Under the pieces are notes generated by a model, which saw only the letters and a program-made list of their open reading frames with translations, was not told the DNA's origin and made no database searches. This document shows positions 2,734 through 63,304 of a stretch of DNA of 64,000 nucleotides, piece by piece. The stretch's first letter is position 1. The number at the start of each line of letters is the position of its first letter. The position numbers and the translations under genes were made by a program. This DNA is from Mobula hypostoma (lineage: Eukaryota), in contig NC_086097.1 of the NCBI RefSeq assembly GCF_963921235.1, positions 165,914,001 through 165,978,000 of the forward strand, in the 5' to 3' direction.

Positions 2734-4113
2734 CAGTGATGCTAGAAAGTTTCTGAACCCTTTTGAATTTTCTGCATAAATATCACCTAAAATGTGATCA
2801 GATCTTTATCTAGGTTTACAACTTGCATGAAGAGAATCCAATTAAATAAGACGAAAAACATTGTACTTATTTATTTATTGAGAAAACTGATCCAATATTA
2901 CATGTATTTGTTAAAAAAATATGTAAACCTTTGCTTTCAGACTGGTGTGTGGTGTGACCCCCCCCCCCCGACTTGTTAAGCAATAACTTCAACCAAACGT
3001 TTCCGGTAACTGTTGATCAGCCCTGTGCATTGGCTTGGAAGAATTTTAGGCCATTCCTCCTTGCAAAACTGCTTCAACTCTGGGATGTTGGTGGGCCTCC
3101 TTGCATGAACTGCTTGCTTCAAGTCCTTCCATCAATAATGGCAAGCCATCCTGGTCCTGAGACAGGAAAGCAGGCTCAAACCATGACACTGCCACCACCA
3201 TGTTTCACAGATGGGATGTGGTTCTTATGTTGGAATACAGTGTTCACTTTTCACCAAACATAACACTTCTCATTTAAGCTAAAAAGTTCTATTTTGGACT
3301 CATCCATCCACAGAACTTTCTTCAAATAGCCTTCTGTCTTATCCATGTGGTCTGTAGCAAACTTTAGACAGGCAGCAATGTTCTTGAAGAGTAGTGGCTT
3401 TCTCCTTGCCATGTACACCATTGTTGTTCGGTACTTGCCTGATGATAGACTCATGAATATTACATTAGCCAATGCAAGAGTGGCGTGTAGCTCCTTGAAT
3501 GTTACCCTTGGGTTCTTTGTGACCTCCTGGAATATTACATAGCTTGTTCTAGGAGTGATTTTTGTTGGTCGACCAGTCCTGAAGAGAGTAACAACGGTAC
3601 TGAATTTTCTCCATTTGTACAACATCTGTCTGACTGTGGATTGGTGGAGCTCAAACTCTTCAGAAATGGTTTTGTATCCTTTTCCAGCTTGGTGAGCATC
3701 AAAAACTTTTTGTCTTGAGGACCTCAGAAATCTTCTTTGATTGAGGCATGGCACATTTCCAAAACCCTGTGTGGTGAAAAGCAGCCTTCCATAGTGAAGG
3801 CCCAGGCTTATGATTTTTAAATAGAGCAGGGCCTCCCACAGCTGATATTGATTGAACACTTGACTCTTAATTTCCCCATTAAATGAACTGATAATCCTCA
3901 AGGTTTGCATAGTTTTCCCAACAAATTAATGTAATATTGGATCATTTTTTTCAATAAATAAGTGAACAAGTATATATATTTTTGTGTTACTTATTTAATT
4001 GGGTTCTCTTTGTCTAGTTTTAGGACTTGCATGAAGATCTGATCACATTTAGGTTGTTTTTATGCAAAAATAGAGAAAATTCTAAAGGGTTCACAAACTT
4101 CCTAGCACCATTG
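2734..4113 (-). mobile_element. Tc1-family transposon with long (~190 bp) terminal inverted repeats; defective transposase
   Basis: Left end TA|CAGTGATGCTAGAAAGTTTCTGAACCC is mirrored by GGGTTCACAAACTTCCTAGCACCATTG ending at 4113; inverted similarity continues ~2734-2920 vs ~3925-4113. ORF 3251-3910(-) has the HTH (GKGYKTIS..QSTVRQ), GRP motif and first catalytic Asp region (WMDESKIELF). Confidence 0.92.
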
Positions 4114-7852: not shown

Positions 7853-8612
7853 TGATTGATATATTTTGCTCTCTTTCTTCCTTTCTCTATTTCTAAAGCA
7901 CTTAGTGCTCTCTTGGACAAAGGTGAATATGGCATCGCATGACCATCTGATACGGGATGTACAATTATGGCAGGAGTTAAGTTGCTTTCTAGTTTTCTTC
8001 ACCTTTTCCATGTTAAGCCTCTGTATTGGTAATGCATCAATATAGTGTATTGGATTATTTTCTGATATCATTCTGAAATATTACTTTTCAGGTAAGTGAA
8101 CAAATACAGGAGTAGCTTATGATGCACAGGATAGTTTTTCTGGAAGCAAAATGAGCTCATACTTTACTAAATTCACAAGTTCGATGTGTCTGTATTTGTT
8201 CCTATGAACTACAGAACCAGTTTCCTCAAACTAGGAACTCTTCTTGCTTTTGAAAGTTGGAATACACTGCCTAAGGGGTGGTAGAGGTGGGTACTGTCAT
8301 AACAGTTAAATATTTAGATCCACAGTTGAAATGTAATGCCATAGGTGTTCGTCTGTCGTTGACATCAATGAGGACCTCAACACCATTATGATGGTGTCGA
8401 GACTAGTGTGTGATTTGGATTTAAGTGAGGGAGAGTTGCGTAGCGTCAGCCTCTCTCTTCCCAATTCCCATCTGGATCCAGTGGCAAGACAGAGTTGAAA
8501 CGGCTGGAGATGCGACTAGGCACAGTGGATGACCAGGACGTCTTCTGTGTCTTGTCCTACTCTACACGTTCCATGACGCTTGCAGAGACCACCTTCTTGA
8601 CCATTAGACCTT

Positions 8613-9379
8613 TGTTACATCATCAGCAACAATGAATATAGAATTGAGTCAGGTTTTATAAACAAACATTTATGAAATTCTGGTCAGCAATAGTGAAAAG
8701 TATTCAAATGACTAACTTAACCAGAAGTTAACTGTTATATGGCAACTCTGGAACAGTTCTTAAAGTGGTAAATTTGAACACAGTCTTAAAATGGTAAATT
8801 CAAAAGTTCAAGTGATTTACACAGTCAATAAGGAGAGACTTCTCTGGAAACGGATTTCTTCGAAGACGTGATGTTATTGCTGATTCTGTCCAAAGCTTTC
8901 ATGACGAAGGAAATAAAATGGCTTAAAGGAACTGAATGAACACTGTACAAACTTGCCTGTTCTTACAGGGGTTATCTCAGATGCAGGCCACTATTTCTGA
9001 ACGAAGATTCAATAAGGTTGATCCTGTATTAAACCACCAAACGACACCAACTCTACTCAATTCTTCAGGCTTCTGTACTTTAGTAAGGTTTTCACTCTCT
9101 AATACGACTTACAATATTAAGTAAATCTCCACTTTAAAACAAAACTGCGTCATGAGACAAATACGCAGCATAACGGAGTAACTGACGAATTAAACAATGA
9201 ATCAACTGCGTAACAAGGGTGTTCCCGTTATATACCTGTTGGGAACATGTCATCACGTGACGTCACTGGCAGGAAAATTACATCACCCCACCATCACAAG
9301 GCCATTACTTCATGCTTACAAGATACTCATTACATCATGGTCATAAGACAGTCACAAGGTACCCACAAGGTATGTAACA
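8613..9379 (-). mobile_element. Solo LTR (767 bp, Gypsy-like)
   Basis: Termini TGTTACAT...ATGTAACA with 4-bp TSD CCTT (8609-8612, 9380-9383). Strand inferred only from a TATA-like motif near 9230. Confidence 0.85.
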
Positions 9380-9480
9380 CCTTACATTGATCTTGACTGC
9401 TCAATCCGCTGGAGTCTGTCTTCACATGCTGGGATAGACAGCTCCCTGTCTCACGGAGGGTTTGAGACTCATTGGCTACC

Positions 9481-9663
9481 CTCACCTGGTTTAGTCCGCT
9501 TGTCAAAGCCCTTGCCCGGGGTTTGGCGGCTGTCACATGTAAACGGCTACGGGGAGCCACAGGTGAGAGCTGAGTGCCAGGTAGGGACCATAGGTGGACT
9601 AACCACCTTGAAAAGGATGTGACATGTTCCCCCACCAGAGGTGCTACCCCTCCCTGACACCCC
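9481..9663 (-). ncRNA. Predicted HDV-like ribozyme at the 5' end of the non-autonomous retroelement
   Basis: Manual fold on the minus strand: P1 GGGGUGU/AAACCCC, P2 CUCACCUG-U/ACCAGGUGAG, P3 GGC/GCC, L3 starting UCC, GG after P1, P4 GCUU/AAGC, J4/2 ACUAA. Not computed or tested. Confidence 0.55.
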
Positions 9664-10511
9664 ATACACCCCAATGCCATAGGTGGATATAGACCAACAG
9701 CTGAGAAATGAGATTAATATAGTTAGGTACTTGAAAGCTGGCATAGTCAATAGATGAAGAAGCTGTTTCCATGTTCTGATTGATTAAATCTCGTGTAGAT
9801 ATTGGGATGAGAAATGCACATTTTTACTGAATGGCAGCGTGGCTTCGATCAGGAATTTGCCTCCATGATGTTGAAATAGGAGTGTATTTACTGCACTAGT
9901 GATCAAAGGTGCTGGCTTAATGGATCAGAAATTTGGGTAACCTACCATTTCTGCAGCTAGGGGAACTTGTAGCAGCAAGACGAGATGAGAACATGGCCTG
10001 GGCCCCTGTTTCAGGCATTTAGACAAGGACATGAATATGCTGGAAATGGACTGAAGGAACATGTGCAAGCAAATGGGATCAGCTTAATCTGGCATTATTT
10101 AAATAATATTTTAAAAAATATTTTTACCCATGATGTCTGTGGTCATATCCTAGGCTACCACCACCACTTTATTATTGTTTTTGTATGGCTGTATTTTTAA
10201 TGAAACCTTGGTTAAGAACTAGAGTGCTTTTTAAATGGATATGCAATCAAATTTGTTCCTGAAGGTTACCTGTATATTTTCGTTCAAAGATCTCTATCTA
10301 CTAAATGGGAGCAGAATTCCTAAATTTTGAAGTTTCATACACCCTGGATGTTTATGTTTGACTCAGTCAAACTGGCTGTCTTAACTATACCCAATCTCAG
10401 ATAAAAAGGTGAAATACTCATACTCAGGAGTCAGGCCACCTCTTGGGAAGAGATGTTGCATTACAGTTTTGGGACAAGTATTGCTTGTTTTTCTAGATTT
10501 CCAATAGCTGT

Positions 10512-21655: not shown

Positions 21656-23742
21656 CATCATCATCATCAGGTGCCATGCCCAGTTTGAGCTTTGGCTGCC
21701 ATGGACCACACACTCCTGTTTCGGGTCAAGTGGATCAAATCATTGGTATTCATTTCCAGTTCTCTGACTGCTGTCTCCATCATCATTTGTATTTGTCTTT
21801 GTCTTCCTCTTGCTTTCTTCCCTTCAATCATTCCATAAATTATCGTGCATTCTAACTCCTCTTTCCTAATCACATGTCCAATGAAGTTACGTTGCCTTTT
21901 CATGATCTCATACATTATTTCTCTTTTTTGTGTTTGCGCTGTTCATGACATCCTCATTAGATATTTGTTTTGTCCATGATATTCTTTGCATCATCCTCAA
22001 AAACCACATCTCTGCTGCTTCAATTCGTTTCCTTATGTTACTAGATATTGTCCAGCATTCTGAGCCATATAACATAACTGGATAAACGTAACATTTCAGT
22101 ACTCTGAGGCGGGTTGTCATGCCTAGTTTAGTATTGGTCAGTATACTCTTCATTCTTGTAAAGGTGTCTTTTGCCACCCCTATTATTCTTTTGATGTCCA
22201 TGTCGCACCTGCCATCTGATGTCACCCAGCTTCCTAAGTAGCAAAAGTTCTGTACTTGTTTTATGTCTTCCCCGTTCATTCTCAGCCTGCAGATAGGATT
22301 CTCCTTCTTTTTGGATATCACCATACATTCTGTCTTTTTGCAATTGATAGATAGACCCATTTTTGCACTTTCTTCAACAATTATATCAATTAAGTTTTGT
22401 AGTTCTTCCTCCATACTTGCAATTAACAGTGTCATCCGCATATCTGATATTATTGATGTTTTCACCGCTATCTTTGATTCCCAAGATGTCTCTTATTTTT
22501 TGTAATATTGTTTCACTGTACACATTAAATAAATCAGGGGAGAAAACACACCCTTGTCTAACGCCTCTCTTAATTTCCGTAAACTGACTCACTTCTCCAT
22601 CTATTCTTACAGCAGCAGTTTGTTCGTAGTACAGATTTCTGATTTGGTGGATGTCTTTCGAATCTAGATCTAGAGTTTTCTGTAATATTTCAAATAACTT
22701 ATTGTGTTTCACTTTATCAAATGCTTTTGTGTAGTCAATAAAACAAACAAACAATTCTTTTTGCACTTGAATAGCTCATTCTGATGGTATCCTTAACATC
22801 AATATTGCGTTTCTTGTACCTTTGTCTTTCGCAAAACCACTTTGTTCTTTACCTATTTCAGCTTGTATCTTACTTTTAGCTCTTGTCATCAAAATTCTTG
22901 GAAGTATCTTGGTAATATGACTCATTAAACTTATGGTCCTGTGTAATTCACATTCTATTGCTCCAGCTTTCTTAGGAAGAGTGATAAATACTGATTTTTT
23001 TTTTTCATCTCTTCTGGTATTATTCCAGTCTCATAAATGTTATTGATTAAATCAGTAATTTCTTCAATTCCATAATCTTCAAGGGCGGTAATTTGTTCTA
23101 TTACTAATTCATCAGGACCTGCTGCCTTTCCTTTCTTCATCTTATTTATTACATTCTGAACTTCAGATTTTAAAATACTTGGACCTTTAATGTTTTTCTT
23201 AATTTCTGGTTTTTCACCTCAATTGTCTTCAAACAATTCCTGAATATACTCAGTCCATCTGTTCATAAACTCATCTTTTTCCATGATAATGTTACCGTCC
23301 TTTGCTTTCAAACATCCATCTGCAGAACAGAGGAGCTTTTTACCAGTGATATTCTTGATTTGTTGATGTAACCTTTTTGGATCAGTCATAGGGATTCTTT
23401 CTATTTGCTCACATTCCTGGTTTAACCATTCTTCTTTGGCTTTTTGACATAAGATTTTAACTTTTTTATCTAAGGACTTATATTCTCTTGGAAACAACAG
23501 GAATTCTGCAGATGCTGGAAATTCAAGCAACACACATCAAAGTTGCTGGTGAACGCAGCAGGCCAGGCAGCATCTGTAGGAAGAGGTGCAGTCGACGTTT
23601 CAGGAAGAGTCCTTCAGTTAGTCCTGACGAAGGGTCTCGGCCTGAAACGTTGACTGCACCTCTTCCTACAGATGCTGCCTGGCCTGCTGCGTTCACCAGC
23701 AACTTTGATGTGTATATTCTCTTGGATTTGCTTATCTGACTC
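21656..23742 (-). mobile_element. 5'-truncated RTE-clade LINE
   Basis: 8-bp TSD ACTAGGAT (21648-21655, 23743-23750) and (GAT)n tail. ORFs 22386-22766 (FIDYTKAFDKV, GVRQGCVFSP, RYADD), 21908-22465 (MLYGSECW, AAEMWFLR) and 21667-21915 (GKKARGRQR). Confidence 0.93.
23493..23712. mobile_element. Fold-back Penelope-derived insert with hammerhead motif, inside the RTE
   Basis: 14-bp TSD TATATTCTCTTGGA (23479-23492, 23713-23726); inverted arms; AGTC-CTGACGA-AGGGTCTCGGCCT-GAAA-CGTT-GACT at ~23620-23655. Confidence 0.8.
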
Positions 23743-60965: not shown

Positions 60966-61637
60966 AATTATCACTCCCTTTAAAATAAGGACAAGGCAAC
61001 TGCATTGGGACATGGAGCTTTGCTAAGGAAATCTCTAGGGGTCTTTAGTGTGTTAAAACATCATGTAGTGTCGTTAACTTGCTGGACTTCAATCAAGATA
61101 AAAGGCTTCGTATTAGCTTGAGATTCTACACTGGAATTGGAAGTCAGATGGCAGGAACATAATGTTTGAGTTTGCAGGAAATCCATAGGCCAAATCAAAT
61201 ATTCGTTATAGAGGTTCAAAGCAGAATTCTTGCTCAGTTGTTGCATGTATAACTGACCTCGACAGAAAGAATCCATAGATGTACTCGTCTCTTTATGTAT
61301 CACACATTTCTAACAAGAGAAATATTAATGAGGATTCCCATATATTGTATTTCCCCAGTCTATTCAGCTATTCCCAAACAACCCCACATTCAGCTTGATT
61401 ATATGCCAGGCAAGGAACTTAGAATTTTCCTGTTCTGAAACAAAAGATGCTAAATATGCCCAGCAGGGCAGGCAGCATCTGTGGAGAAGGAAATGGAGTT
61501 CACATCTGAGATCCACGACCCTTCATCAGAACTGGATAGGTAAGAAAGCAAGCATACTTTAAGTTGCAGAGAGGGCGAGGGTGGAGAGAACAGAGGGATG
61601 CACAGGATAAGGCACAAAGTTACAATTGCTTTGAAAA

Positions 61638-61924
61638 TGCAAACACGAGGAATTCTGCAGATGCTGGAAATTCAAGCAACACACATCAAAGTTGCTGGTG
61701 AACGCAGCAGGCCAGGCAGCATCTCTAGGAAGAGGTACAGTCGACGTTTCAGGCCAAGACCCTTCGTCAGGACTAACTAACCTCCCTCTCCCACTTTTAT
61801 ATCTCTTACTAGCTCATTCTTCAGTTAGTCTTGACGAGGGGTCTCGGCCTGAAACGTCAACTGTACCTCTTCCTAGAGATGCTGCCTGGCCTGCTGCGTT
61901 CACCAGCAACTTTGATGTGTGTTA
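61638..61924. mobile_element. Fold-back Penelope-derived element with two opposed hammerhead motifs
   Basis: ~100-bp inverted arms (61678-61778 vs 61823-61923) around a ~40-nt spacer; CTTTGAAAA duplicated at 61629-61637 and 61925-61933. Confidence 0.82.
61739..61774 (-). ncRNA. Minimal type I hammerhead ribozyme motif with intact core
   Basis: Minus strand AGUC-CUGACGA-AGGGUCUUGGCCU-GAAA-CGUC^GACU: stem I AGUC/GACU, stem II AGG/CCU, loopless palindromic stem III (ACGU), GUC cleavage triplet. Confidence 0.7.
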
Positions 61925-62024
61925 CTTTGAAAACATTTGGTTAGGGAGCAGAAGAGATAAAAGCAACAAATTGATACAGAAGGTTACAGCCATGAAGAAT
62001 GAGAAATAAAAATTCAAAAAGATG

Positions 62025-62283
62025 ACCCTTTAAAACTTAGATGAGGAGGAATGTCTTTAGCCTGAGGGTAGTGAATCTGTGGAATTTATTGCCACAGAAG
62101 GATGTGGAGTCCAAGTCATTGGCTGTACTTACAGAGGCAGAGATTGATAGCTTCTTTTCTGGGAAGACTGTGAAGGGTTACAAGGAGATGGCGGAGAATG
62201 GGGCTGAAAAAAAATTAGCCATGATTGAATAGCAGTTCAGACTTAATGGGCTAAATCGCCTATTCCTGGTCCTCCATCTATGG
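62025..62283 (+). mobile_element. CR1 3' fragment
   Basis: ORF 62041-62232 (MRRNVFSLRVVNLWN). Confidence 0.8.
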
Positions 62284-62851
62284 CAGGCAAGAAATAGTTT
62301 GCCTGAAATTGTTACATTCAAAATTGGATCCTGAAGGTATCAACATGCCCAGCTGTGAGTTGAGTTGTTGCTTCCCAAGTCCATGCTGGGCATTGCCACA
62401 GCCTCAACATAGAAGGCTGAAGAGAGGTCAGAGCAGAGGGAAGTGACAGAGGACTGGAAGCCCAATGCCACCTCTGGGGACCGAAAGGGAATGTCTAGTA
62501 AGTAAGTCAGCTACTCTGCTCACTCCAGGACCACGGAATGCAATACGGTTTCTCCATAGACATCTTCCTCTTTCATTGTTCTGAGGGGACTGGCTGGTCC
62601 ACTCACTCATCTCCACGCAGCACCTACCCCTCCAATTGCATATTGCGTTACACTGTGGCCATTCCCTGCACTGAAGGGCAGAGTGCGAATTCGATTACTA
62701 CTTTGTAGAGTACCACTGTTTAGTCTGTGAAATTGGTCCTGGGCTTCCAGTCACCCATTTGAACTCCCTATTTGACCTTCTACACTTTTAAGTGGTATCC
62801 AATATCAGCTCAAGGACCACACATTATCTTCTATCTGGGCATGTTACAACG

Positions 62852-63152
62852 CTCATAAAAGTTGCTGGTGAACGCAGCAGGCCAGGCAGCATCTCTAGGA
62901 AGAGGTACAGTTGACATTTCGGGCCGAGACCCTTCGTCAGGACTAATTGAAAGAAGAGATAGTAAGAGATTTGAAAGTGGGAGGGGGAGGAAATCTCTTA
63001 CTATCTTTTCTTTCAGTTAGTCCTGACGAAGGGTCTCGGCCTGAAACTTCGACCGTACCTCTTCCTAGAGATGCTGCCTGGCCTGCTGCGTTCACCAGCA
63101 ACTTTGATGTGTGTTGCTTGAAATTCCAGCATCTGCAGAATTCCTCGTGTTT
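62852..63152. mobile_element. Fold-back Penelope-derived element, inserted in an older Penelope ORF-end remnant (~62600-63202)
   Basis: 13-bp TSD GCATGTTACAACG (62839-62851, 63153-63165); inverted arms with CTGACGA..GAAA motifs. The host reads ..HIIFYLGMLQ|..LNNKFNHFR*, resembling a Penelope C-terminus. Confidence 0.82.
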
Positions 63153-63304
63153 GCATGTTACAACGTTTGAGACTTAACAATAAATTTAACCATTTCAGAT
63201 AACTACACTTTTCCTTGTCATCACAGTTGTGGCTGTGCTATTCTGCATCACTGATTACATCAACTTCTGTGTGGACTGCAATGTTCCGACAAGAACTGTC
63301 CTTT

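Follow-up and report, generated by a model that had tools for sequence, protein, structure and literature searches.

The element described here is a decayed bipartite copy, of approximately 560 bp, derived from an RTE LINE, and its 194-base head is predicted to fold as an HDV-type ribozyme; we consider it likely that this head cuts the RNA just before its first G, and that the loop of a hairpin inserted in L3 pairs with a hexamer located downstream. The copy lies on the minus strand of a 64,000-nt stretch of the Mobula hypostoma genome (assembly GCF_963921235.1, contig NC_086097.1, positions 165,914,001 to 165,978,000), hereafter the window, whose first letter is position 1. The features of the copy are collected in Table 1.

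Table 1. Features of the element copy and of its predicted ribozyme head (positions in the window).
Feature	Positions	Strand	Remarks
5' TSD copy CACCTATGGCATT	9673..9685	-	13 bp, identical to 8335-8347
Family A element, 5' part: predicted ribozyme head and RTE 5' UTR	9380..9672	-	Family comparison
P1 5' strand, G9672 as predicted G+1	9666..9672	-	Predicted cut site just 5'; 5'-end pile-up
J1/2 domain, structured, 96 nt	9570..9665	-	Many two-sided changes
P2 5' strand, 10 bp and one pair across a bulge	9559..9569	-	Invariant in six families; 99% of cells paired
P3 5' strand GGC (9558-9556) and canonical 8-nt part of L3 (9555-9548)	9548..9558	-	
L3 inserted hairpin, 3' side of L3; loop hexamer 9540-9535	9529..9547	-	
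P3 3' strand GCC (9527-9525) and P1 3' strand (9524-9518)	9518..9527	-	Invariant in six families
P1.1 GG (9517-9516), J1.1/4 and P4 (9511-9496)	9496..9517	-	Two-sided changes in P4
J4/2 with candidate catalytic C9494	9491..9495	-	C invariant
P2 3' strand	9479..9490	-	Invariant in six families
Downstream hexamer, predicted partner of the L3-hairpin loop	9424..9429	-	Covarying pair
Solo LTR, 767 bp, TGTTACAT...ATGTAACA, AAGG duplication	8613..9379	-	TG...CA ends
Element 3' part: remaining RTE 5' UTR, junction hairpin (8401-8376), RTE 3' tail stem-loop	8348..8612	-	
3' TSD copy CACCTATGGCATT	8335..8347	-	13 bp, matches 9673-9685

The predicted head occupies positions 9672-9479, and the ORF-less element runs from G9672 to 8348, a span that follows from the recurrence at 8347-8335 of the 13-bp sequence that precedes G9672. 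An earlier note on this DNA had placed the TSD-defined start at the predicted P1 G+1, and this TSD does adjoin G9672. The two TSD copies are 1.3 kb apart because a solo LTR splits the element copy; we identify the 767-bp insert as such since it has 39 other full-span copies (84-88% identity), several of them forming same-strand pairs 5-12 kb apart. Once the LTR is removed, the window copy shows 43 differences in 554 aligned bases with respect to the family A majority sequence, being 92% identical to it. In its head, one P1 pair is lost to a C-to-A change at 9523, two P4 pairs to changes at 9511 and 9497, and one stem pair of the L3 hairpin to a change at 9545, while a G-to-A change at 9495 alters J4/2; as judged from these five helix and core changes, the window copy is probably an inactive fossil. 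The suspicion that the copy could be dead, raised earlier from the P1 mismatch, thus gains four further changes. Part of the first description reflects the same decay: a P4 of 4 bp and a J4/2 reading ACUAA are correct for this copy, but P4 is of 6 bp in the family, four of which survive here, and J4/2 is GCUAA in the family, its initial A being decay.

A genome-wide search (3.48 Gb) returned 3,024 candidates, and the 40 that were scored, window copy included, were all at least 91% identical; both halves of the element were present in the 29 other copies fetched (29/29). A 16-mer specific for family A has 1,331 exact matches in the genome (0 for the control), so the family counts at least 1,331 copies, and a core 15-mer common to several families has 4,556 exact matches (5 for the control). 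Seeds drawn from a sample of these 15-mer matches led to families B, C and D, 527-534 nt in length, which have the same head as A and different 3' parts. Also observed was a composite subfamily (L007, L019, L023, L028, L029, L187 and L051) with a tRNA-like SINE of approximately 140 nt within the junction hairpin of family A, accounting for 5 of the 29 top family A copies; no tRNA was called by ARAGORN in these inserts.

The same head was found in L227, an unrelated record and the sole match from a motif scan of metagenome contigs, where it is accompanied by a 5' UTR and by an endonuclease and RT frame (APE-RT) of 1,096 aa, free of stops; a viral contig set gave no match. When the N-terminus of this frame was used to search for autonomous-type RTEs in the Mobula hypostoma genome, BL and E LINEs carrying the same head were obtained, with BL heads 91-93% identical to that of family B. 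Given the presence of the head on L227, BL and E LINEs, the element is a bipartite non-autonomous RTE LINE derivative, composed of a 5' UTR and a 3' tail of approximately 40 nt, and its variant fold comes from the LINE. The family A unit has 559 nt and is devoid of the LINE's APE-RT frame, a 127-aa stop-free frame lies over the head, and the 5' part shows 74-76% identity to the UTR of L227 over 305-431 bases. The proposal of a ribozyme-headed, non-tRNA SINE family with a variant fold therefore has to be modified: the family is multi-copy and non-coding and the fold is HDV-like with an L3 hairpin, but we are dealing with a LINE derivative and not with a new type of SINE, and the fold is inherited from autonomous RTE LINEs instead of being specific to the short elements. 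A head of tRNA, 5S or 7SL type, as in a Pol III SINE in the strict sense, is absent, since what stands there is the 5' end of the LINE itself. Rfam gave no small-RNA match in the 5 kb of window and the five loci scanned, and ARAGORN found nothing in L013, which is weak evidence against a tRNA head because the program missed the tRNA-like inserts too.

At its 3' end the element has a terminal stem-loop and a GAAC(AAC)n tail, like the family F LINEs and RTE-3_AMi; its last 40 nt resemble RTE-3_AMi 3854-3893, as given in the supplement of PMC5786205. Family F is formed by RTE LINEs with stop-free frames of up to 1,129 aa, the youngest-looking LINE here, which have no HDV core, gave no Rfam match in the two loci scanned, and have the tail type in common with family A together with a UTR body 76% alike. 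Their 5' ends (L288-L297, L268-L287) bear variable G+C-rich extensions, with a doubled short motif at the head. The search for a direct autonomous parent of family A returned none, either among 21 loci with the junction-variant motif, all of them short elements (0/21), or among 30 loci anchored in the 3' tail, where none led into an RT frame (0/30). Another observation concerns RTE-11_PSi, a Repbase family labelled as a turtle's: positions 358-517 of the family A majority (region of window 8500-8390) are approximately 93% identical to it. A hand count against RTE-11_PSi 370-529 (supplement of PMC5786205) gave 12 differences in 160 positions, and this likeness could be taken as a hint of horizontal transfer. 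The window also contains, at around 23500-21650 on the minus strand, a broken piece of an RTE-like LINE that ends in a (GAT)n tail and is very abundant, with 133,298 candidates at first look; no ribozyme head was found in 30 loci of this LINE, few of them reaching a 5' end.

The two halves of family A join in an 11-bp hairpin, and a related pairing was looked for in 10 copies of full-length LINEs. In 5 of these the matching UTR site ranked first in complementarity to the segment preceding the 3' stem-loop, in 2 more it was within the top 2%, and in the other 3 it was unremarkable, six further copies being left out as they had no anchor. The duplex energy between the 5' UTR and the 3' end beat all 20 shuffles in 1 of 11 copies, in a test that does not discriminate. 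Taken as complementarity, these data give partial support to a pairing of the LINE ends.

The predicted fold was examined in an alignment of 27 heads, consisting of the window copy, L227 and five copies each of families A, B, C, D and E, these being the best or near-best five of 29 A, 34 B, 29 C, 24 D and 11 E. Across the 27 rows, the helices P1, P2, P3, P1.1 and P4 appear in the HDV order in a nested double pseudoknot. P3, P3', P1', the GG and C9494 lie where the earlier note had put them on the minus strand, and P2 is also present, but its strands extend over 9569-9559 and 9490-9479 (10 bp and a bulged pair). A P1.2-type helix, in which the second GGGGUGU takes part, closes the J1/2 domain by pairing 9662-9653 with 9581-9572, and it was predicted in the seven family sequences folded (7/7), with a different sequence in L227; the 9-nt duplication pointed out in the earlier note is family-wide and no peculiarity of this copy. 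Five of the eight positions of the canonical part of L3 are invariant (positions 4, 5 and 7 vary), and the register U-C-C-x-x-G, equivalent to U20, C21, C22 and G25, is invariant in six families. Since this register is intact, the inserted hairpin would stick out of L3 on its 3' side, away from the active site. With the insert, L3 reaches 28 nt in family A and 26 nt in B and L227 instead of the 7-8 nt of the HDV norm, and for this reason the structure was filed as an HDV-like variant.

The core is highly conserved among six families that are 61-85% alike in the UTR body. Invariant positions amount to 23/23 in P2, 7/7 in P3 plus linker, 7/7 in P1', 2/2 in the GG and 4/5 in J4/2, which is always GCUAA or GCCAA, with only the base after the C varying; outside the core the values are 31/96 in J1/2 and 12/49 just downstream. 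Part of this invariance is by construction, because L227 and the seeds of families A to D were found via core motifs. E and BL were found by protein search and not by motif, so that core invariance in them does not have this origin.

With respect to covariation, 93% of the 930 cells of the proposed structure are paired and 22 cells show two-sided change, a result matched by none of 500 shuffles, whereas slid controls gave 38-47% of paired cells; four of the E rows are 5'-truncated, with a lower count of P1 pairs. Two-sided changes were found in 3 of the 6 pairs of P4, and the J1/2 helices show strong covariation. The G-C pair at the base of the L3 hairpin becomes A-U in family D, and each arm is one base shorter in B and L227, pointing to the hairpin as a genuine structure on comparative grounds. 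When pairs varying on both sides are counted, there are 5 among 35 (3 in P4 and 2 in the L3 hairpin, one of the latter resting on a single copy), a number reached by 170 of 500 shuffles. No family-level two-sided change was detected in P1, P2, P3 or P1.1 among the 27 aligned heads, and the invariance of P1, P2 and P3 means that no covariation evidence comes from these helices, so the covariation check proposed earlier is positive for J1/2, P4 and the L3 hairpin and negative for the other helices.

Generic methods were less favourable. The nested folding energy was no better than that of shuffles (z of -0.39 for a clean copy and +0.14 for the window copy), and RNAalifold favours an extended P3 into which two bases of P1' are drawn and which competes with P1, a modelled alternative that would possibly be an inactive fold. 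The comparison with Rfam HDV-like models, also suggested at the beginning, turned out negative, with no match at E up to 10 in 5 kb of the window or at E up to 5 and 2 in five loci each. A descriptor with the L3 insert, composed after the sequence was seen, had 0 matches in 1.92 Mb of shuffled window and in 2000 shuffled elements (0/2000), and it matches the majority sequences of A, B and D and L227, but not that of C or the window copy. By locus, it matches 22/29 of A, 13/29 of B, 2/29 of C and 2/24 of D. The equivalent descriptor with a canonical L3 had 0 matches in 2.15 Mb of fetched loci.

The 5' ends of the genomic copies were analyzed in 46 unique copies of family A, obtained from 60 loci chosen by two 3' motifs, and in 29 copies of family B, obtained with a query beginning around 107 nt inside. 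In family A, 26 of the 46 copies begin exactly at the first P1 G and 28 within positions 1-3, while in family B position 1 is the start of 16 of the 29 and positions 1-3 of 21; the accumulation of ends at GGGGTGT anticipated by the earlier note is therefore observed in both. No shared sequence was found upstream of the start among the copies sampled of A (46) and B (29), and the TSDs of family A are variable, of 7-13 bp. As read from these DNA copies, the data fit an RNA whose 5' end would be the first P1 base. The second GGGGUGU was considered as cut site and discarded, given that it forms the closing helix of J1/2 and that a single copy of the 46 begins at the second GGGG, the remaining copies being truncated. 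The base preceding G1 in the 26 full-length A copies is T in 16, A in 7, G in 2 and C in 1, probably a target-site preference. Contigs assembled from four sequencing runs cover the element, and carry no start or strand information.

Taken as a whole, our analysis makes self-cleavage within the family quite probable. A fixed transcription start would, however, also give a pile-up at the start site, and it can be argued that the fold is real with its catalysis lost or weak, in which case an internal promoter or complete reverse transcription would fix the 5' end and the structure would serve as an exonuclease shield, a translation element or a protein-binding site. In published reports, the ribozyme region of L1Tc doubles as promoter, the fold of R2 protects the 5' end, and an L3 insert like this falls outside the described consensus; moreover, family F keeps intact frames without the core. 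We find this explanation unlikely, because across six families the loop bases nearby change but the J4/2 C, the L3 G and the P1.1 bases never do, and because the pile-up is exactly at the first P1 base, the position at which HDV-like ribozymes cut according to PMC4908430.

Even less room is left for the two explanations that question the fold. If L3 were the canonical one of 8 nt, P3 would close on the GCU directly after the loop, leaving around 20 extra nt between P3 and P1'. The triplet after the loop can in fact pair with GGC in A, B, C and E, but the P3 so formed opens with a G.U and is broken in 6 of the 27 rows, including the five D copies (C.A), compared with no break (0/27) for the long-loop P3, in which GGC and GCC pair in 27/27, and this led us to reject the short pairing. 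The same triplet is an arm of the covarying hairpin, and the lack of matches to the canonical descriptor in the 2.15 Mb adds to these objections, so this arrangement appears very improbable and the earlier claim of an L3 of around 28 nt holding a hairpin is sustained by the covariation of the latter and by the breaks of the rival pairing in D. A chance arrangement, the head being just a G+C-rich repeat whose RNA has no conserved structure, would agree with the z-scores near zero, the absence of Rfam matches and a descriptor fitted afterwards, but it is scarcely credible in view of the two-sided changes seen in J1/2, in P4 and in the L3 hairpin, of a core that remains invariant in spite of UTR bodies only 61-85% alike, and of the 5' ends at G1.

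The loop of the L3 hairpin is complementary to a hexamer that sits 106-111 nt downstream of it. At the fourth loop base, the pair formed with the hexamer is U-A in 29/29 copies of A, 24/29 of C, 22/24 of D and 9/11 of E, and also in L227, and is C-G in 20/29 of B, 3/5 of BL and 12/16 of F, the departures being mostly U.G or C.A, the pattern expected of CpG decay. Within 520 nt the loop has no non-self perfect partner other than the hexamer in A, B, D, E and F; in C and L227 there are two or three such partners, the hexamer among them. A tree of the UTRs separates A and F from the rest and leaves BL on the other side (support of 100/99), so that the switch between U-A and C-G must have taken place at least two times. 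A docking contact between loop and hexamer is thereby slightly favoured, a reading that depends on one covarying pair whose U-A form is palindromic. In family F, where the ribozyme core is absent, the same loop is borne by a hairpin that precedes the hexamer by 52 nt; assuming homology of this hairpin, loop and hexamer together suggest a general pseudoknot module of RTE UTRs. Going further, we tentatively propose, as an idea with somewhat less than even chances, that this RTE lineage has an active HDV subtype not described before, in which the pseudoknot module was grafted into the catalytic loop, coupling cleavage to UTR folding, and later outlived the ribozyme.

By analogy with R2, L1Tc and drz-Agam-2-1, a mechanism for the proposed self-cleaving head can be put forward. 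Copies of the element would be transcribed by read-through from host promoters, and the head would then fold, helped as in drz-Agam-2-1 by P1.2 and a long P2, which hold P1 and P2 together. Cleavage before G1, carried out by the J4/2 C, would remove the host leader, and the resulting RNA would be reverse-transcribed in trans by an RTE protein, with family F as candidate supplier owing to its intact frames and similar 3' stem-loop and tail. The inserted hairpin would be half of the RTE 5'-UTR pseudoknot and not a part of the active site.

The ribozyme drz-Agam-2-1 is linked to RTE. In the accessible part of its description in Anopheles gambiae (PMC4908430), it resembles the head studied here in having a 7-bp P1, a large J1/2 closed by P1.2, cleavage at the first P1 base and an extended P2, of 12 bp there and 11 here, and it differs in that its cleavage is demonstrated and no L3 insertion is mentioned, whereas here we have a predicted fold with such insertion. 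More generally, HDV-like ribozymes are described at the 5' ends of R2, R4, RTE, baggins and L1Tc (PMC6765202, PMC5786205, PMC8256844 and PMC3774820, as far as accessible), in the same position and with the same inferred role, freeing the element from its co-transcript. The catalytic C and the L3 G are conserved in the R2/RTE-type ribozymes and here, but in the portions of these sources available the flexible parts are J1/2, P4 and J1/4, and a review figure of the fold allows expansion only in J1/2 and P4, while in our case a 19-nt hairpin is located inside L3 and may dock downstream. Solved HDV-like ribozymes have an L3 of 7-8 nt, with a role for G25.U20, in the accessible part of bioRxiv 2022.09.22.508989. 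A ribozyme-headed RTE is a known idea, and the L3 hairpin insert is the part that would be new. The insert was not found in the literature searched, also by sequence motif, which includes the accessible parts of PMC4870747, PMC7761336, PMC13708176 and PMC3774820; supplements of the founding ribozyme surveys, subscription papers and patents could describe it.

NARTc, RIME and the R2 SIDEs have a canonical L3. According to PMC5786205 and PMC8256844, they are likewise short non-autonomous derivatives of ribozyme-bearing LINEs, although of clades other than RTE, and NARTc is stated to carry the ribozyme. Closer to family A are the bipartite, ORF-absent non-autonomous RTE elements of PMC5786205 (RTESINE1/2, WALLSI3, MAR4_MD, the RTE-N families and Bov-A), in which a 5' UTR is likewise followed directly by a short 3' tail, and which are noted there to retain the 5' end of the LINE and, possibly, a ribozyme; the accessible part of that source gives no ribozyme structure for them, in contrast to the fold predicted here for family A, and a search of its supplement, as available, for eight head motifs found none.

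If the predicted cleavage is true, the HDV fold would tolerate a helix inside L3, a loop treated until now as fixed at 7-8 nt, and current descriptors and Rfam models would in consequence undercount the family. Because standard descriptors miss the L3-insert subtype, an active subtype would mean that animal genomes hold thousands of uncounted ribozyme copies, perhaps also those of RTE-1_MD-like elements employed in gene writing, and could bear on the design of templates for RTE-based gene writers. A tertiary contact from L3 to the downstream hexamer would represent a second peripheral control besides the P1.2 "pinch". The results also bear on why RTEs yield two-ended parasites whose 5' end is preserved exactly, a question raised in PMC5786205. 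Positions 411-501 of RTE-1_MD resemble families C and D by eye.

Other repeats were observed in the window. A second, older copy from a related C-like family, with a deletion in the P2 5' strand, lies at around 35430-34900 on the minus strand. Clusters of near-palindromic repeats of approximately 100-145 bp in both orientations are present at 23489-23713 and 61634-63159, possibly corresponding to a hairpin-type DNA element. Finally, a 224-aa stop-free frame at 3925-3251 on the minus strand presumably resembles a fragment of a Tc1-type transposase.
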